In this document: piece by piece, positions 4,685 through 40,324 of the stretch
Layout: each line of letters starts with the position of its first letter
How positions within the stretch are numbered: position 1 is the first letter of the stretch
Made by a program: the position numbers and the translations under genes
Notes under the pieces: model-generated
Databases searched by the model: none
Told to the model about the DNA's origin: nothing
Seen by the model: the letters and a program-made list of their open reading frames with translations, nothing else
Source of the DNA: an uncultured Gemmatimonadales bacterium
GTDB taxonomy: Bacteria > Gemmatimonadota > Gemmatimonadetes > Gemmatimonadales > GWC2-71-9
NCBI GenBank assembly: GCA_963844035.1
Contig: CAWJMT010000005.1
Coordinates: 96,001 to 160,000, forward strand
DNA length: 64,000 nucleotides
Direction: 5' to 3'

Positions 4685-5128
4685 ATGAAGTTCGGCGTTC
4701 TGTTTCTTCTTGCGGTTCCTGCAGTGATCGCCTGCGATACGACCACGGACACGGGCGACTTCGTGGGCACACCGTCGATCAGAATCGCAGGCACTTGGGC
4801 CTACAATTTCAATCGTGTACGACGCCGACAGCTCGGCGTACTGCACTGACGTCCGGGAATGTCATGCTCAGCCAGACCCAGAACGGTGACCAATTCACCG
4901 GCGGAGTGTCCGGCGTCTTCAACTGCATCGAAAACGGCTACCCGGGCGAGGAGCCTGACCGCGCTCGTGCCTGTTACGGCCGGGGAGCTCGCGGGTACAT
5001 CGGTCCGGTTCATCGCGTTCGGCTGCATTCACCTGGGGGCGGTCAACGGCTACTCCCGCGAACCATTTCACCGGGACCCTGAACTGCACCTTCCCGCTCA
5101 CGGAGTTCGGCCCCACGCGCCCGATTAG
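4685..5128 (+). CDS. Hypothetical lipoprotein (multiple frameshifts)
   Basis: GGAGG RBS; MKFGVLFLLAVPAVIAC lipobox; IAGTWAY motif; continuation in other frames, end approximate. Confidence 0.55.
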
Positions 5129-5290
5129 CGGGACGTGGGAAGCAACCCGCTAGAGCACGGTACGCTATCTTAGGCGCATGCCTGACCGGCGTGCGCTTGT
5201 TCGTCGCGACCAAACGCATCACCCATCCTGACCACGGGCTGCTTCCAGCCGTTCGACGAGTTTCGGGTGAACCCCCCACGTTAGCGCCGC

Positions 5291-8200
5291 GTGCGTTCTA
5301 GGGCCGCGCTCGCCTTTAGCATCGTTTTCTTCCTGTCCGGCGTCACCGGGCTCGTCTACGAGTTGCTCTGGGTCCGGCTCCTCTATCAGGCATTTGGCTC
5401 CACCATTCAGTCGGTGACGACCGTCGTGGCTGCCTACATGGGCGGCCTCGGACTGGGCGCCTGGCTGCTGGGCCGATACGCCGACCGCCACCCGAAGCCG
5501 GCGTGCGCTCTATGGCTGGCTCGAAATCGCCATCGGCCTGTTCGGGATCGTGTCTCCGCTCGTCCTTGACCCTCGCGCACCGGGTCTATGTCGCCACCGC
5601 GGGCGCGCTGGCGCTGGACGGCGCCCCGAGCCTGGCCCTGCGGTTCTTCCTGGCGGCGATCGTGCTGCTCATCCCCACGACGCTGATGGGGGGGACGCTC
5701 CCGGCGCTCACCCGCGCCTTTATGGGCGTCGAGCGCGATCGCCTCAAATCCTCCGTCAGCCGCCTGTACGGCCTCAACACGCTCGGCGCCATGGTCGGCA
5801 CCGCACTCGCCGGATTCTTTCTCATCGAGCATGTGGGGATTCGCGCGTCGCTCTGGGGCACCGCCACCGTCAACGTGGTGCTCGGGGTGGCGGCGCTCGC
5901 GGCTGGCCCGTCACTCCGAGCCGAGCTGTCCGCCCGCCCGCCCCGGTCGGGCCGCGCGGCGCGGGGCACATACGGACCGTCGCGCTCGCTCTCCTCGCCG
6001 TCACGGCGTTTGCGTCCCTGCTCAACGAAATCGCCTGGACCCGCGTGCTCGTGATGATGGTCGGCGCCTCGACGTACGCGTTTACCCTTGTGCTGCTCGT
6101 CTTCTTGCTCGGGATTGGTCTGGGGAGCGCGCTGGTCGGCAGATGGGGTGCCGCGCGGCCCGCCACCTTGGTCGACGCCGCCCTGGCTCAGGGCATTACC
6201 GGCGCAGGAGCCGCGTTACTGCTGATCTTTTTCAACGCGCTCCCCCTGTATGTCATGGCTGTATTTCAGCATCACGAATTCGGAGCGATTACCCGCCTTC
6301 TCCTTTTGGGTGTGGCCGTCGGAGGGGTAATCCTGGTCCCGGCGATCGGCATGGGCCTCACGTTTCCACTGCTCACTGATCTCGCTGCCCCGCCCGATAC
6401 GGCGCGCGGTGCCGATGTGGGTCGCGCCTACGCACTCAACACCCTGGGCAGCATCGCTGGCGCCGTGCTCACGGGTTTCGTCCTCGTGGTGGTGCTCGGC
6501 AGCAAGACGACGTTGCGCGTCGGACTGGTGATCAACGGCGCTGCCGCGCTCACGCTCGCCGCGCTCGCCGCTGGAGGCGTCGCGGCGGGGTCGGTGGGGT
6601 ACCGGGGGCTGCGGCGCCGGGTGGTTGCCGCGGGCGCGCTCGCGAGCGTGGCACTCGGAGTCGCGATCGGCGCGCCGGGATGGAGCACGCGCCTGATCGA
6701 CCTGGCACCCACCATCTACGCGCGTCAGGAGATGGATGCCGCGGCCCGCCGCGCGTTCATCGCGCATCGGGGTCAGCGCCAGATCGCCTTCCGTGAGGGC
6801 TGGAATGCGACCGTGAGTGTGTGGGATGGGGTGAACGGGCGCACGCTGCGCGTGAACGGCAAGGTGGACGCATCGGACGGCCCGGACATGAACACCCAGA
6901 TCATGCTGGGGCTCGCGCCTGCGGCGGCGCGGCCGGACGCAGCGTCCGCTCTGGTGATCGGATTCGGGAGCGGGGTCACGACGCGGGTCCTCGCGGATGT
7001 CCCCGGGATGAAGCGGGTGCGCGTCGTGGAGATCGAGCCCGCCGTGCTCGCCATGCGGGGGTTGTTCGCGAGAGTGAACGACTCGGTGCTCGAACGCCCG
7101 AACGTTGCCGCTGTCGTGGACGACGCGCGCAGCGCGCTGCAGCTCTCGGGACGACCGGTTTGATGTCATCGTTTCCGAGCCATCCAACCCGTGGGTCGCG
7201 GGCGTCGCGACGCTCTATACGCCCGAGTTCTTCAAGATTGTCCGATCGCGGCTCGCCGAGGGCGGGGTGTTCGGCCAGTGGGTCCAGCTGTACCAACTTC
7301 CCCTGCCGGTGGTGGCCGGCGTGGTGCGCAACATCCGCACGGTATTTCCGCATGTGGAAGTGTGGTTTTCCAGTACGCTCGACATCATTGTCCTGGCCTC
7401 GGACCACCCCCTGCGCTACGAGCGTCCCTGGCTCGCGCGTCTCATCGGGCCGGGCACGAGCATCGGCGCGCTGGGCCGGGAGTGGTTGGGCATCGATTCG
7501 GTAGGCGATCACTTTGGCCGCCGGCTGTTGGGAGAGGCCGGCGTGGCACGCCTGGCCGAGCGGGGCGTGCTGGTCCATCGCGACGACCGTCCCCAGCTCG
7601 AGTTCGTCGCGGCCCGGCGATTTCTGGATCCGGATTGGGATGCTCACGTGTTCGACTCGCTCGTTGCTGTTGGAGACCGCGCGGGCGACACACCCGGGAC
7701 GTCTCCCGTGCTGCTGGCGCGGGCGATGACCGTGTCCCGGGTCTCGTCTATCGAGATGGCGATCCTGGAAGGAGCCCATCGCGCGCGGCCCGACGACCCA
7801 GTGTGGACCATACGTCTCGCCGCGGCGAAGTTCGCTTTCGGCGATACAGCGTTCGCGGACAGCGTGGTGCCCGCTCTCCTGGCGCACGCGCGACATCCGG
7901 AGGTGTTGTTGTTCGCCGCCGGCCTGGCGGATCGCAGGGGTGACCCTGTCCGACGCGGTGCCCTGCTCGAAGAGGTCCTCGCGCGCGGTGGCGATACCGC
8001 GATGGCGTTGGCCAGCTTGGCAGGTCCAGCCGCCCGCGCCGGCCGGTGGGAGGAAGTGGGCGAACACCTGCGGGTTGCCTTCGCAGTGGCCCGCGGGAGC
8101 TACCGCCATCCATTTCCCGCGACTCAGCTGCGAGAAGCACTCGCGCAACTGGCGGTGAAGGGGCCGGTTGCCATGGCCGACAGCGTGCTGGTGATCGCGC

Positions 8201-34012: not shown

Positions 34013-35582
34013 GCGCGCGGGCCGGCGTCCCGCACGGCTGCCGGCGCCGCGATGTGCTCGAAGTTCTCCCGGAACAGGTGCGCCACGCGCGCCGCCTGCG
34101 CGTCGTAGGCCGCAGGGTCCGTCCACGTGCGCCGCGGATCCAGCATCTCGGCGGGCACCCCCGGGACCGCGCGTGGGATCGCGAGCCCAAAGACGGGCTC
34201 CGGCACCGTCGGCGTGCCTTCGAGCGCTCCCGACACGGCGGCGCGCACGATGGCGCGGGTCAGCTCGAGCGGAATGCGCTTACCCACACCGTAGGGACCG
34301 CCGGTCCAGCCGGTGTTCACGAGCCAGATCGCTCACGCCGTGCCGGGCGACCTTGTCGCCCAGCATGTTCGCGTACACCATCGCGTCGAGCGGCAGAAAC
34401 GGGGCGCCAAAGCAGGTGGAGAACGTGGCGGCCGGCTCGGTCACGCCCGCGCTCGGTCCCCGCGATCTTGGCCGTGTACCCGGACAGGAAGTGGTACAGG
34501 GTCTGATCGCTCGACAGGCGCGCGACGGGCGGCATGACACCGTACGCGTCGCACGTCAGGAACACGATCGGAGGACGGGTGACCGGCCATGCCGCTCGCC
34601 ACATGGTTCGGGACCACGTCGAGCGGGTACGCACGCGCGCGTGTTCTCCGTGATGGCGGCGGAGTCGAAGTCCACCGCGCCGGTCGCGGGATCCACGACG
34701 ACGTTCTCGAGCACGGTCCCGAAGATCCTGGCGGCCGCGTAGATCGTGGGCTCGCGCGTGGGCGAGAGCCCGATCGCCTTGGCGTAGCAGCCGCCCTCGA
34801 AATTGAACACGCCCTGGTCGCTCCAGCCGTGCTCGTCATCGCCGATCAGGGCACGCTCCGGATCGGTGGAGAGCGTGGTCTTGCCGGTTCCGGAGAGTCC
34901 GAAGAACAGCGCCACGTCCCCTCCGGTCCCGCGCGTGGCCGCGCAGTGCATCGGCAGCACGCCGTGGGCTGGGAGCAGGTAGTTGAGTGTCGTGAACACC
35001 GCCTTCTTCAATTCCCCCGCGTAGCGGGTTCCGCCGATCAGGATCGTGTGCGCGGCGAAGTGGATGACCACAAAGGTGCCGGACCTGGTGCCGTGCCGCG
35101 CTGGATCGGCCTGCAGCTCCGGCGCGTGAAGAATGTGCCACTCAGGCGTGAACGTCGGGAGGTCGGCGGCAGCCGGGCGGCGCAACATGTTGGACACGAA
35201 CAGCGCGTGCCAGGCGTTCGGGGTCACGAGCCGAATCGCGGTGCGGTACCGCGGGTCCACGCCGGCGAATACGTCGAGCACGAACAGCTCCTGTCCGTTC
35301 AGGTGCCGCACCACGTGCTCGCGCAGCCGCGCGAAGTGGTCCGGGCGCCATCGGCTGATTCACCGGACTCCAGTGCACGCGCTCGTTCGACTCGGGGTCG
35401 CGCACGATGAACTTGTCGCCGGGGCTGCGGCCGGTGTGAGGCGCGGTCACGACGCAGAGGGCTCCGTCCTCCGCAACCACGCCCTCGCCGCGACGCACCG
35501 CGTGAGCGTGCAGCTCGGCGGCCGCTTCGTTCCAGTGAAGCGCCCCCCGGGGTGCGAGTCCGGCGTCGAGGAGCGACGTCAT
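34009..35582 (-). CDS. pckA: Phosphoenolpyruvate carboxykinase (ATP) (frameshifted)
   Basis: [61 protein letters not shown]. Confidence 0.95.
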
Positions 35583-36239
35583 TGTGGCGGCGGCGCCACT
35601 GTTGCGGCGGTGTGATAGAGGACTTCCACGGTGCGGCGGTCGGCGCTGCTCGGGGCGTAGACCGTCGGCGTCTGGTTCATGATGTCGAGCGGGGCCGGGC
35701 TGTGCTTGAGCAACCCGAGTGCATGGCCAAGCTCGTGCACCGCCACGCGTTGCAGGCAGGCGGCGACCTGGGCCGGGGTATAGCCCGCGAGCGTGCCCAG
35801 GGTCACCCGGACCGCCCGTCCGGGGCGCCGAACCGCTCACCCACGACGGGTAGTCGGTTGGCCCGGCGCAGGCCGTGACCGGCGGACCGGGATCGGGCGG
35901 CACGTCTGGAGGGACCCACTCGCCCACTGCACGATCACGTCCGCCTGGCTCGAGTCGGTACACCGCCACTCCGCCGCAACTCGCCGTACAGGAACTGTGC
36001 CTCCCACGCCTCAATACCCAGCGTCACGAGCGATGGGCATCGCGCCCTCGCGGGTCGGCGTAGAAGCGCACGGGCAGCGCCGTGGCGGGCCAGTGGAACA
36101 CGAGGATGTCGGGCGGGACGGTGTCGGCAAAGTCGTAGGTGCATCCCGGACAATCGCGCACCGGGGTGGACGGGCTCGCAGCGGCCGCGACCACGGCGGC
36201 GCCGAGCAGGATCGCGGCTACGCGGCACGCCCGGGTCAT
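35579..36239 (-). CDS. Secreted matrixin-like zinc metalloprotease (frameshifted)
   Basis: Signal peptide; HELGHALGLLKHS...DIM Met-turn. Confidence 0.75.
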
Positions 36240-36860
36240 TGGCCCGCGCGTCCGTGCGCGCGCACGGTGAGCGCCACGCGGTGGACGGTCTGAGAGGACG
36301 TCGAATCCCTCGTCGCGCAGGGCGGGCGTCGTGAAGCCATGGATGTCGTAGCGGAGCTTCGACGGCGCATCCGAACCGCCTGCCGACCGGCAGCGTGTGG
36401 GCGAGTGCGAGCGTTCCGAGGCCCGCGAGGATCCGCTTCCCAGGCGGAACAGGCCGGTCTCCTCGGCCGGGAAGTACTTGATCCCGCCGACGCCGATCCA
36501 GGTGGAGAAGCCCCGCGGGCAGCGCGCGCTCCAGGCCGACGGTGAATGCCGCGGTGCTCACCCGGCCGAGTGCGACGCTCGAGCCGTCGGCCTCATGCCG
36601 CTGGAGCTCGCCACTCGAAAAATCGACGGCGACACGCGCGGCCCAACTGCTGTCGAGCGGCACGACCAGCGCGACTGCGACGACGGGGGCGAGGGCGGGG
36701 CGTACGTCGAACGGCGTCACGATCGAATCGTGCACCAAGCGCGGTGCTGTAGCGCGCACCGGCGGAGATCTCCACCATCAAGTTGGCCGGTCCCCGGCCT
36801 CGGCGCGAACGCGCAGAGCGCCGCGACGAGCAGGACCACCGCGTTCCTGCGGCGTAACAA
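36236..36860 (-). CDS. Hypothetical exported, probable beta-barrel protein (frameshifted)
   Basis: TTG with AGAGGA RBS; signal-like AVVLLVAALCA; alternating beta-strand segments; stop overlaps next ATG. Confidence 0.5.
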
Positions 36861-36864
36861 TCCT

Positions 36865-37699
36865 CTACGTCCTCCTCACGACCACGAATCCGCTCACGAC
36901 GGCCAGCAGCAACCCGCACGCACACACGATCGCCGCGCCCGTCGGCAAATCTAGCCGGTACGACGCCCACAGTCCCAGCAAGCTCGCGGCCGTCGCGATC
37001 CCGAACCCGATCAGCAGCCGTCCCATCCACCGTTGCGCCAGCATGACCCCGCACACGGCGGGCACGATCAGGTACGCAAACGTGAGCAGGACGCCCGCGA
37101 TCGCGCACGAAACTCACGACCACCAGCGCAAACGCGGCGTAGAACAGGAAGTCCCACAGCCGCACGTGCAGCCCTTGCTGGTACGCCTGCTGGTGGTCGG
37201 ACGAAATCAGGGCGAAGCGGCGGTGGAAGGCGCCGAAGAACGCGGCCAGCACCGCGAAGAGGGCGGCACGCTGGCCGACTTCGGCGCCGGTCACGTTGAG
37301 AATATCGCCGGTCAGGAGGTGCTCGAGCTCCTCCTTGCCCCCGGCGACCCGGCTCAGCAGCAGGATCACCCCGGCGGCGGCGACCACGAACGTGATGCCG
37401 ATGATCGCCTCCTGCGGGACCTGGTGCTTCTCGCTGCTCCGGGACCAGCTGAAGAGCGCCGCCGCGGCAAACGTCACGCCGAGCGAAATCCAGAACGTGA
37501 TGCGATCATCGAAGTGGTACCCCAGGATCAGCGCGACGCAGGTACCCAGCGTGGCCACCTGGGCGAGCGCGAGGTCCACAAAGATCACTTCGCGCTTCAC
37601 CACGTGCAGGCCGAGATAGACCAGCAGGGGCGGCAGGATCAGGCACGCCGCCAACGGCCACTTCATCACCGCCCAGACGACTTGGAAGTCCACGGGCAT
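36865..37699 (-). CDS. Metal ABC transporter permease (ZnuB/MntB-like) (frameshifted)
   Basis: YLGLHVVKREVIFVDLALAQ, EAIIG, LTGDIL, DLPTGAAIV. Confidence 0.88.
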
Positions 37700-38628
37700 C
37701 ACTTGGTCCCTCCCAGGGCGGCCGCCAGGGTGCGCACGATGTAGTCCATCAGGTCGAAGTAGGTCTCGGTGCCCGGGATGGCGCCGGGCTGCTGCGGAAT
37801 GTCCAGGACCTGCGCGTCGGTCTGCCGCGCCACCGTTTCCGCGGTCTTGCGATTCTGGAATGGTTGCACGAGGATCACCCGCGCCTTTTCGGCCTTCATC
37901 TTCGCGATCACCTTCGCCAGATGCGGCGGGCGACGGCGCGATGCCCGGCTTTGGCTCGAGCGTCTCGACGATCTCCAGGTTGAACCGCTCCGCGAGGTAG
38001 ACGAAGTCCTTGTGGTAGGTGACGATCTTCGCCCCACGATACGGAGCCAGCTGCTTTTGCCAGTCCGCGAGCTTCGCGTCGAGCGTCGCGTTGAACGTCT
38101 GGAGGTTGGCCTTGAACAAGCTCGGCGTCTGCCGGATCCACCTGGGCAAGGTGGTCGGCAATCTGGCGGACGATCAGCTTGACGTTGACCGGGTCGATCA
38201 GGAAGTGCGGATTGCCGAGCGCGTGCACGTCGCCCATGGAGCGGTCCAGCGTGCTTGGCACTTCGAGCAACGTCACTCCTTGGGACGCGGAGATCCGTCC
38301 CGGCGCGCCGGCGGCGATCTTGTCGTTGCGCGCGCTCTCGAGCAGCGGCGGCAGCCAGCCGATCTCGAGCTCCGCGCCGCCCTCGATCAGCACATCGGCG
38401 CGGTTCAGCGTCACGATGTGGCTGGGCTTGGCGTCCACGAAATGCGGATCTTCGGTGGGTTTGGCGAGCGCTTTGACGTCGACGGCACTCCCGCCGATGG
38501 CGCGGGCCAGCGCGGCCAGGTCGGGCGTCGTGGCGACCACGTTGAGTTGGCGCGCGGGGGGCGTACTCGCACCCAGCGATGCCATCAGCGAGACGGCCGT
38601 GCAGGTCCGCAGGATCCATGATGGTCAT
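37699..38628 (-). CDS. Metal ABC transporter substrate-binding protein (TroA/ZnuA-like) (frameshifted)
   Basis: VVATTPDL, EDPHFVDAKPS, GDVHALGNPHF, VTYHKDF, EPKPGI. Confidence 0.9.
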   Translation of the reverse strand: MTIMDPADLHGRLADGIAGCEYAPRAPTQRGRHDARPGRAGPRHRRECRRRQSARQTHRRSAFRGRQAQPHRDAEPRRCADRGRRGARDRLAAAAARERAQRQDRRRRAGTDLRVPRSDVARSAKHAGPLHGRRARARQSALPDRPGQRQADRPPDCRPPCPGGSGRRRACSRPTSRRSTRRSTRSSRTGKSSWLRIVGRRSSPTTRTSSTSRSGSTWRSSRRSSQSRASRRRPPHLAKVIAKMKAEKARVILVQPFQNRKTAETVARQTDAQVLDIPQQPGAIPGTETYFDLMDYIVRTLAAALGGTK

Positions 38629-38643
38629 GGGAGGTTCTCGCCT

Positions 38644-39855
38644 CTAGAACTTGTGAGCGGCGTGTGCGCCGAGGAGGAACTCGATTTGCAGCCAGACCGA
38701 GTGGTCGACGCCGAGTCCCTCGCGATGGTCGAGGTTGTACTGCAGCCGCACTTTCGAGAACTCGCTCGGATACCAGGTCACGTTGGGCGACACGCGATAG
38801 CGGTCGGCGCGCAGCTCCGAGTCGAAAGAGGCGGTGTCGCCGCCCGCGAACTCCCCCCGCAGACCCTGCCACGAGCAGCGGCTTGATTCCCCACAGGACC
38901 TGCGCGTATGCACCGCCGTCACGCAGCGTCTCCTCGGGCAGCGTGACGATGGGATCGGCGGCCGACGGGCGCTGCTGCCGCGTCATAGCGGCGCGTGAGC
39001 GCCTCGGCTTGAAATGAGACGAAGGGGAATCCCTGATGCGCTTTCAGGGACTTCCATTTCCAGTACAGGTCGGCGCCGTACACCTGCGTTCCGGCATCGG
39101 GCCCGGAGTTGTTGGGGCCGAACGCTCCGGAGACTCCCATCACCAGGGTCTGCGTGGCGGTCACATCGAACGAGGTCGCGAGGCGCGGGACGATCAGCAG
39201 GTCGCCCACCGAGCGTACCGCGCGCTCGATCGGCTCACCGCCGTGGATCTCCTCCGATTCGTCCGACCGAAAGCTGTACGCCGTTCCGCCGGCGCTGTTG
39301 AACACGCCGACCATCGCCTCGGCGTACCACGGGGTGGGCGCGAGCCAGGACACCCGCATCCCTGGCTGCGCAGTCCCTCGGGGCCGAACATGCGATTGAG
39401 GACGAGCGGCTGGTCTGCAAACGCCCAGGCGTGGGGGTGCTGGGCGTTCTGGCGGCCGAACTCCGCAAAGAATTGGCCGCCCTTGAGCTGCAGGTTCGCC
39501 GGGGAGCGAGGTGGTCAGGAAATACATCTCTTCCAGCTCGACACCCGTTTCCCCTTTGTCATCCAGCTTGTAGACGATGTTGGCGAATCCCTTGAAGTGG
39601 GAGTCGACGGTACCGTCGAGCGCGAGCTCGCCGTTGGGGATCGAAAAGCCGCGCACCTTTGGGTCGTGGTCGCCGAGCTGCAGCGAGCCCACATCGGGCT
39701 CGGTCGACCAGCCGACGTCCGCCAGCCCGACGAAGCTGAGGTTCATGTAGGACCCGGCAGCACGGCCCGGAGCGGTGCGGCTGCTGCGCGACGGCCGCAC
39801 CCGCAGCACACAAGGCTACTGCCACCAGGATGGCGACGTAGGAAACGGGAGACAT
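38644..39855 (-). CDS. Outer-membrane beta-barrel metal uptake protein with C-terminal GAHAAHKF (frameshifted)
   Basis: Signal peptide; GDHDP...GF, ELEEMY, PSEFSKVRLQY, WLQIEFLLGAHAAHKF. Confidence 0.75.
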
Positions 39856-39926
39856 GTCATCTCTCCTGTGTTCGCGATGTATGAGCATCCGCCCCCGCTC
39901 GTTCCGAGCAGCGGTGGCGCGCGATG

Positions 39927-39950
39927 TCGGGACCCCGCGCGGGGCCCCGA
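39927..39950 (-). promoter_or_regulatory. GC-rich hairpin just downstream of the leader ORF
   Basis: Minus strand TCGGGGCCCC-GCGC-GGGGTCCCGA (10-bp stem, one G-U), 6 nt after the leader stop; no U tract. Confidence 0.55.
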
Positions 39951-39956
39951 GGTTGA

Positions 39957-40288
39957 CTAGGAGAGGTGGAGCGGTGGGGCGCGGGGCTGGGAGGCGACGT
40001 AGGTCGCGCTGCCCATCCCAACGTGTTGCAGCCAGCGGCGCGGGGTGCGCCGGGACCGATGCCCGCAGGGCGACCTTCAAAGGCCGGCGGGGGCGCCGTG
40101 AGCGAGTTGGCGTAGAGACACAGCGCGCAGCGCATCGCGTCGTGGATGACGACGCAGCTCGCATCGTGGTGCGCTTCGATGGTCGTCGGCGCGGTCTCGC
40201 GCTCTCCGGCGTGCGCCAACGGCACCGCCCCGCCCGCTACGAGCTGCAGCAACAGCAGCAGGGCGGAGATGGGAGTCCGGATTGGCAT
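39957..40288 (-). CDS. DUF2946/CruR-like leader protein with His/CxxC motifs and C-terminal RAPP (one indel)
   Basis: Hydrophobic N-terminus, AHHDASCVVIHDAMRCALC; the -1 frame ends TYVASQPRAPPLHLS-TAG; span 332 nt, one base short of a full frame. Confidence 0.72.
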
Positions 40289-40294
40289 CAGTCG

Positions 40295-40324
40295 ATCATT
40301 GCTCTTGACGGTCGTCCTTGTCAA
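40295..40324 (-). promoter_or_regulatory. Sigma70-like promoter for a leaderless transcript, overlapped by TTGAC-N10-GTCAA
   Basis: TTGACA (40324-40319), 18 nt, AATGAT (40300-40295), 6 nt, ATG (40288); palindrome 40305-40324. Confidence 0.5.

Follow-up and report, generated by a model that had tools for sequence, protein, structure and literature searches.

The question raised by this locus is what a short, frame-broken open reading frame (ORF) does at the head of a probable metal-uptake operon. The locus lies on the minus strand of the window, i.e. the whole 64,000-nucleotide stretch analysed here (an uncultured Gemmatimonadales bacterium, contig CAWJMT010000005.1, positions 96,001 to 160,000). 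It comprises this ORF, hereafter the leader, followed by genes for an outer-membrane barrel, a ZnuA-family binding protein and a ZnuB-like permease (Table 1). An earlier note, made from the sequence alone, had read the ORF as a leader of about 110 codons masked by a frameshift, with an export or transmembrane segment, a His/Cys motif and a near-terminal RAPP, followed by a hairpin and the three genes. All these elements lie where that note placed them, the leader has 109 residues and is intact and in frame in relatives, and the arrest-leader anatomy of the locus is near certain. On balance, we favour the reading that the leader is an arrest peptide of the CruR/CutF type, probably sensing zinc, whose stalling would free the Shine-Dalgarno sequence (SD) of the barrel gene, which encodes a predicted porin.

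The N-terminal half of the leader matched 15 of the 61 genomes searched. In 11 of these 15 non-self loci, the motif is followed by an ending in frame with it, RAPP in 10 and RSPP in one; the other four, counted among the matches seen, comprise two with RAPP and no CxxC, a degenerate one whose operon is gone and one without a visible RAPP leader. A profile of the leader matched 326 proteins, and among the best 120 of these, RAPP is present in 119 (RGPP in one), CxxC in 120/120, and the spacer between the two is 44 residues in 118 and 43 in two. The set E-x2-H-x3-C-x3-H-x4-CxxC is invariant in these 120 proteins, as is the His-Ala at the end of the export signal (120/120), and the linker leading to RAPP varies freely. 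This set does not include the first residue of the "HH" described in the earlier note, which is His in only 31/120 proteins and Gln in 76. The alignment of the leader profile with a Sulfurovum leader was not significant; therefore, distant leaders are alike in anatomy without demonstrable homology. Two paralogous leaders with H-x4-C-x3-H-x3-CxxC and RAPP (L032:3361-3750, minus strand; L023:~4990-5359, plus strand) precede a TonB-dependent receptor of ~790 residues. That of L023 is a second leader directly 3′ of the permease gene, so that this locus holds two leaders and tandem operons.

As the best 120 proteins are the top profile hits and are thus selected for the motif, a second approach was made from the barrel gene. 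It started from 130 barrel loci (50 of the 88 barrel finds of one search and 80 from another), of which 118 were kept after leaving out one duplicate and 11 loci with less than 450 nt upstream. An ORF with an R[AGS]PP-stop ending at most 250 nt from the barrel start was found in 101/118 loci, compared to 2/118 on the opposite strand, 0/68 one kb upstream, and 3/118 and 5/118 for control motifs. The pairing of leader and barrel therefore exceeds chance. According to record titles, the phyla and classes concerned are Gemmatimonadota, Verrucomicrobiota, Lentisphaerae, Planctomycetota, Binatia, Nitrospirota, Methylomirabilota and Alphaproteobacteria. Among the 101 leaders found via the barrel, 60 (all those with a CxxC in range) have CxxC at a spacing of 43-46; in-frame CxxC and RAPP do occur upstream of the barrel gene in relatives, a point that the earlier note had proposed to check. 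A hydrophobic 13-mer, detected by hydropathy only, is present in 92 of the 97 leaders long enough for this search, and at least three residues that are His or Cys lie in the zone 41-66 residues before the Arg in 97/97 leaders counted. The 17 misses include 10 loci with a similar ORF that has a variant ending (HAPP, HGPP, CGPP, RPPP or LAPP) and seven without one, as judged by eye. Of these endings, HGPP is already known to cause arrest (PMC12992588). The five endings, which are natural variations on the arrest motif, occur in L103, L107, L113, L117, L120, L129, L133, L136, L141, L142 and L165. The leader-barrel intergenic region has a median length of 88 nt. Downstream genes were counted in 74 of the 130 loci, the 56 with less than 3 kb downstream being left out: a binding protein follows the barrel in 74/74 and a permease in 73/74, and an ABC ATPase gene lies inside the operon in 10/74.

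In the window itself, one frame holds the N-terminal half of the leader (through the His/Cys motif) and another the RAPP-stop ending (39983-39957). The bases at 40083 and 40025 are both missing from each of three contigs, of X1, X2 and X6, that are about 95% alike, and the break therefore probably consists of two extra bases introduced by sequencing or assembly. The single-base restoration made in the earlier note gave the same net frame, whereas these contigs point to two extra bases rather than to one missing base. X1 and X2 belong to one study and are apparently the same 1688-nt contig, X6 belongs to a second study (depth 2.4), and all three are contigs of relatives, not reads from this genome. 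Two intergenic bases, 39941 and 39906, are likewise missing from all three contigs. The spacer from CxxC to the Arg counts 44 codons on discounting the two bases and 45 if one base is added. Since many genes are split, the three downstream ones into 4, 3 and 2 frames (barrel, binding protein and permease, respectively), the assembly is riddled with indels. ATG 40288 was preferred as leader start to TTG 40324, which is less likely because relatives have ~61 residues before CxxC and X1/X2 recover that length via an extra 21 nt.

These 21 nt, by which the window is shorter near the leader N-terminus than X1/X2, would fit a decayed pseudo-operon with true frameshifts, the family itself being real. 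The source reads were not found (the best run shares 0.15 of words, and no RNA run is listed), which leaves room for such decay, and it has a parallel in the relative G004: what remains of the leader in its locus L030 (1385-1660) is degenerate, contains RAPP and a segment in duplicate and is followed by a fragment of another gene, the porin, binding-protein and permease genes being lost. Decay of the present copy nevertheless appears very improbable, as frameshifts also occur throughout the window in housekeeping genes that are unrelated, all six single-base differences listed (four in the leader and intergenic region, two in the barrel gene) consist of an extra G on the plus strand, and the gene pieces are still 50-87% identical to intact relatives.

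CruR (Bp2923 of Bordetella pertussis, the prototype of DUF2946/PF11162) is, like the leader, the first gene of a metal-uptake operon, with an export signal, a CxxC and a near-terminal RAPP; the spacer is 45 in CruR and 44 here, and both have a long structured intergenic region. CruR stalls at RAPP in vitro (PMC12992588), its CxxC is a copper site and five additional residues in the spacer break its control (PMC9426467). The leader differs from CruR by: (i) its extra invariant His, His, Cys and Glu and its occurrence in other phyla, (ii) the porin, ZnuA-type and ZnuB-type genes that it heads, compared to a TonB-dependent copper transporter and a PepSY protein, and (iii) a predicted SD-occluding stem compared to demonstrated Rho termination. 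The reading of the earlier note as a metal-responsive nascent-peptide switch thus gains support from an anatomy that is in frame in relatives and from a CxxC-RAPP spacing that matches the one tested in CruR. Membership of DUF2946, for which that note had suggested a profile search, was not found at the Pfam gathering cut-off of 23.7 bits: none of 26 intact leaders (0/6 and 0/20) reaches it, the best scoring 16.5 bits and 8/26 giving weak matches (E 0.015-0.096), and the window pieces have no hit. In one Atlas cluster of look-alike proteins, 13% of members carry DUF2946. The CzcI model (NCBIfam NF045614, cut-off 100 bits) matched only the paralogous leader L032, at 22.4 bits, and none of four other leaders. 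Scans against further families likewise stayed under their cut-offs.

ApdA and ApdP, whose arrest at RAPP occurs while Pro occupies the P and A sites (PMC10951233), resemble the leader in being small exported proteins, encoded ahead of a regulated gene, that have a RAPP close to the C-terminus; they lack a metal site and serve to monitor where proteins are localised (PMC10951233). By analogy, the leader could sense export or periplasmic redox (SecM/ApdP-like pulling or a disulfide) and tie porin synthesis to envelope capacity, with no metal involved. The export signal in 92/97 leaders suits this idea, RAPP peptides were first demonstrated as secretion monitors (PMC10951233), and disulfides have been proposed for the cysteines of CutF (bioRxiv 2025.02.05.636593). 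Yet invariant His and Glu stand beside the Cys, the zone 41-66 residues before the Arg contains three or more residues that are His or Cys in every leader counted, and metal importer genes follow in 73/74 loci, which makes a metal-free monitor quite improbable. CutF of Rhodobacter capsulatus has in common with the leader favoured here, a metal-sensing one, that it is an exported nascent metal sensor with a stem-loop shielding the downstream ribosome-binding site. It differs by its CxxxC and PPP, by a copper-induced stall and by activating a detoxifying oxidase (PMC9973294, bioRxiv 10.1101/2025.02.05.636593). CutF-like leaders are not all copper-specific, His-only ones being located before Ni/Co transporters (PMC9973294), and the word "zinc" has no occurrence in the main texts of PMC9973294 and bioRxiv 10.1101/2025.02.05.636593. 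In the literature found, metal sensing by a stalled nascent chain is demonstrated solely for copper (CruR, CutF), and no zinc-sensing arrest peptide appeared in the literature searched, whose coverage excluded most subscription papers. The main text of the GTDB-wide survey of RAPP upstream ORFs does not mention "zinc" and tested no such pair (PMC12992588); at least nine such leader-importer pairs are present, undiscussed, in the published source data. In supplement file 8 of PMC12992588, 17 of the 26 "zinc" rows listed pair a RAPP ORF with a downstream TraR/DksA C4 zinc-finger gene. Most of these ORFs end with RGLRGLDVLRRS-x-DRAPP and constitute a separate candidate arrest-peptide family.

The barrel that follows the leader is predicted to be a porin. 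The model of its intact relative P0001 shows an N-terminal helix and a 16-strand barrel without plug (mean pLDDT 89.8, barrel >90), and the best Foldseek matches of this model are the porins OmpT, Omp38 and OprP, OprP having the highest query TM (0.55). None of three intact barrels had any hit in Pfam, including the TonB families PF00593 and PF07715. A TonB-dependent transporter was considered and, on this model, ruled out: 16 strands are predicted and not 22, the plug is absent, Pfam gives no hit and the fold is porin-like. The "non-TBDT" uptake system of the earlier note accordingly takes the form of a predicted plug-less 16-strand porin. Existing names for barrel clusters are only "hypothetical" or "TonB-dependent receptor", and the family known as "zinc-regulated TonB-dependent receptor" is re-labelled here as a predicted 16-strand porin and candidate zinc channel. 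The family (L033-L162) includes two main C-terminal types, GAHxAHxF and GPHKHETY, ~20-25% identical, that share one operon position within a genus. This suggests an exchange of porin-importer modules behind a retained leader.

Which metal would be sensed is indicated by the operon. At the three canonical ligand positions, the binding protein has His, also at the one that is Glu in Mn/Fe binders, and the fourth position lacks their Asp; four His are conserved in 121-122 of the 122 sequences compared. No second ZnuA-family gene was found in this genome, which is 84% complete, and the best NCBIfam match of the binding protein, far under cut-off, is AztC. A Vibrio campbellii locus (L164) carries the same three genes in the same order, without ATPase, with the same His ligands and a barrel ending in GAHxAHxF. 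The barrel, binding protein and permease match this cluster with E values of 3e-45, 2e-40 and 7e-27, respectively (hhalign 99.9%). Upstream of the V. campbellii barrel lie two TGTTAT-n3-ATAACA palindromes and no leader; this motif is found upstream of 0/98 leaders and has no exact copy in this genome. A second palindrome lies upstream of 2/98 leaders, also with no exact copy in this genome; the Zur consensus of these phyla may differ. In L094 (~2950-2975), a leaderless Verrucomicrobiota locus, TGCAA-n5-TTGCA stands upstream of the barrel, as it does in 2/98 leader loci. We take TGCAA-n5-TTGCA to be possibly a Zur-type operator.

The omr-znuA2-znuB2 cluster of V. campbellii and V. parahaemolyticus (VP_RS21430-21420, VPA1307; PMC9817125, PMC3794297) belongs to the Zur regulon, and that of V. 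parahaemolyticus is up 283- to 1034-fold under zinc limitation (PMC9817125). Its ZnuA sustains growth under TPEN via conserved His (PMC3794297). The operon of the window thus shares with the Vibrio cluster, as represented by L164, its gene content, gene order, lack of ATPase, barrel ending and His ligands. The two differ in that Zur regulation and palindromes occupy, in Vibrio, the place taken here by the leader, and the "TonB-dependent receptor" label of the Vibrio barrel is at odds with the predicted plug-less 16-strand fold. Because of this homology to a zinc-induced cluster and of the His ligands of the binding protein, zinc appears the likeliest metal, which narrows the "Zn/Ni/Co rather than Cu" proposed in the earlier note. 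We consider it rather unlikely that the same arrest switch serves another metal (copper as in CruR, nickel, cobalt or manganese), given the zinc-induced Zur-regulon homologue, ligands that are His and not the Glu/Asp of Mn/Fe binders, and the AztC match, though far under cut-off. Such a metal would be in line with the CxxC, which is the copper site of CruR, with the His-only CutF-like leaders adjoining Ni/Co transporters (PMC9973294), with the best solved-structure matches of the binding protein, which are Mn/Fe binders, and with an extra invariant His, which could suit Ni or Co.

How the leader would act is suggested by the intergenic RNA. The 10-bp GC hairpin that the earlier note had placed 6 nt past the stop is present (39950-39927); it does not stand alone and is the inner arm of a larger predicted fold, whose closing stem pairs the last codons of the leader (CUCUCCU) with the SD of the barrel gene. 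An intrinsic terminator was ruled out for this hairpin because it has no U-tract, and terminator calling on the minus strand at the locus called none. Fold statistics were obtained for 69 loci, 32 of the 101 leaders being left out (no clear SD or an intergenic region outside 20-200). Tail-SD pairing is predicted in 44/69 loci, compared to 25/69 with shuffled tails. Native tails form tail-SD duplexes of -15.1 kcal/mol on average; the mean is -12.5 when partners are swapped and -11.2 when a different stretch of the leader takes the place of the tail. In 25/69 loci, the native tail ranks within the top tenth when compared to swapped partners, whereas ~7 such loci would be expected. Blocking the footprint of a stalled ribosome, a calculation made without control, raised SD opening by more than 0.2 in 39 of the 69 loci and lowered it in one.

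A metal-responsive arrest peptide could also act via transcription termination, Rho-dependent as for CruR, and not via SD release, and both may act together. CruR control is Rho-dependent, with an intergenic region of 162 nt (PMC9426467), the SD of the window re-pairs locally once the anti-SD is blocked, and 25/69 loci lack predicted tail-SD pairing. Termination in place of SD release is nonetheless unlikely, considering that the intergenic regions are highly structured and shorter than that of CruR (88 nt at the median), that tail-SD complementarity is locus-specific, exceeding that of swapped partners, and that there is no intrinsic terminator.

In the SD-release switch that we favour, the last codons of the leader would pair with the porin SD when no ribosome is stalled, and the operon would be off. 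At low metal, a ribosome would rest on RAPP, the first Pro occupying the P site, and cover these last codons, so that the SD would be free and the importer made. We infer this direction from the RAPP stalls of ApdA, ApdP and CruR, in which the P and A sites both hold Pro. With a spacer of 44 residues, the metal site would have just emerged from the exit tunnel and lie close to the translocon or have passed through it. Ample metal would bind at this His/Cys site and make the chain fold or be pulled, releasing the stall and closing the operon. This direction would be that of CruR and would suit an importer.

Several observations weigh against this reading. The CxxC is absent at the expected spacing from 41/101 leaders, whose corresponding zone carries different His/Cys sets, so that the ligand set varies; similar leaders also head a TonB-dependent receptor gene. 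As regards the RNA switch, shuffled tails pair often (25/69) and related loci are not independent. Furthermore, in the model of the window, the freed SD re-pairs with the first codons of the porin itself and remains mostly paired. As regards the replacement of Zur, TGTTAT-n3-ATAACA is presumably a gammaproteobacterial Zur box, an assumption of ours on which the label of the V. campbellii locus rests. Fur-family loss is not enriched in barrel-bearing genomes (16/88, compared to 36/201 overall), so that no anti-correlation of leader and Fur-family genes was found. The single Fur-family gene of this genome matches Fur/PerR best and falls under all cut-offs. As regards zinc, the link to V. parahaemolyticus consists of the homology to V. 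campbellii together with the statement of PMC9817125, and CruR, whose CxxC is a copper site, is only moderately affected by zinc (PMC9426467).

Table 1. Positions, on the window, of the leader, its parts and the genes and sites around it
Feature	Position	Strand	Remarks
Promoter-like site TTGACA-18 nt-AATGAT, weak	40295..40324	-	Ends 6 nt ahead of the leader ATG; 10/12 consensus matches
Leader ORF	39957..40288	-	Start ATG 40288, stop 39957; 109 residues, two extra bases discounted; CruR/CutF-type arrest-peptide candidate
Predicted export signal, ends Ala-His-Ala	40208..40288	-	Hydrophobic segment to LAHA (40219-40208); sequence, hydropathy
Candidate metal site E-x2-H-x3-C-x3-H-x4-CxxC	40118..40177	-	Residues invariant in 120/120 top homologues; His/Cys part 40171-40118
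Extra base, first frame break (probable assembly error)	40083		Not in X1, X2, X6 contigs
Extra base, second frame break (probable assembly error)	40025		Not in X1, X2, X6 contigs
RAPP, putative arrest motif	39972..39983	-	44 codons past CxxC; 4 residues ahead of the stop
Predicted anti-Shine-Dalgarno CUCUCCU	39959..39965	-	Within the final codons of the leader; RNA fold; pairing predicted in 44/69 related loci
10-bp GC hairpin, inner arm of intergenic fold	39927..39950	-	6 nt past the leader stop; no U-tract
Shine-Dalgarno AGGAGAG of barrel gene	39861..39867	-	Sequence and fold
Outer-membrane barrel gene	38644..39855	-	Product ends GAHAAHKF; homologue of Vibrio "omr"; predicted 16-strand plug-less porin; split over 4 frames
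ZnuA-family (PF01297) binding-protein gene	37699..38628	-	His ligand set; start approximate; at least 3 frames
ABC-3 (PF00950, ZnuB-like) permease gene	36865..37702	-	2 frames; end approximate; operon without ATPase gene

The surroundings of the leader add some observations. Two promoter-like sites of the strength of that at 40295-40324 occur in 7 kb, compared to 0.4 expected; this site might yield a leaderless transcript, which its sequence suggests weakly. A -10-like hexamer 6-8 nt 5′ of the leader start codon, in the window, L005 and L009, likewise hints at leaderless transcripts. In L002, L003, L004 and L006, the leader start overlaps the stop of an endonuclease IV-like gene by 4 nt, a hint of translational coupling to a housekeeping operon. 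On the other side, two genes (~35400-36800, minus strand) are kept 3′ of the operon in Gemmatimonadales and persist where the porin-importer operon is lost (L030). The first encodes a probable outer-membrane barrel of ~206 residues and the second a lipoprotein-like protein of ~213 residues with CxxC and a Matrixin-type zinc-protease motif (PF00413, 26.4 bits in L019).

No Fur-family match was found in 16 of the 88 barrel-bearing genomes, among which 10 (93-100% complete; hand count) have a leader seen. With no Fur-family gene found in them, control of their operon by Zur is unlikely. It is conceivable, and we propose it only tentatively, that in Gemmatimonadota, Verrucomicrobiota, Planctomycetota, Nitrospirota and others, including Fur-less genomes, a ribosome-borne nascent-peptide zinc sensor replaces Zur and gates an unrecognised zinc porin feeding an importer mostly devoid of an ATPase gene. 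If true, zinc uptake would be controlled independently of Zur in abundant soil and water phyla, and the control of the main ZnuA-type importer would be accounted for in genomes without a detectable Fur-family gene. Furthermore, the ligand variants (CxxC, single-Cys, His-rich) held at a fixed distance would constitute a natural series on how metal pulls on or releases a stalled ribosome.

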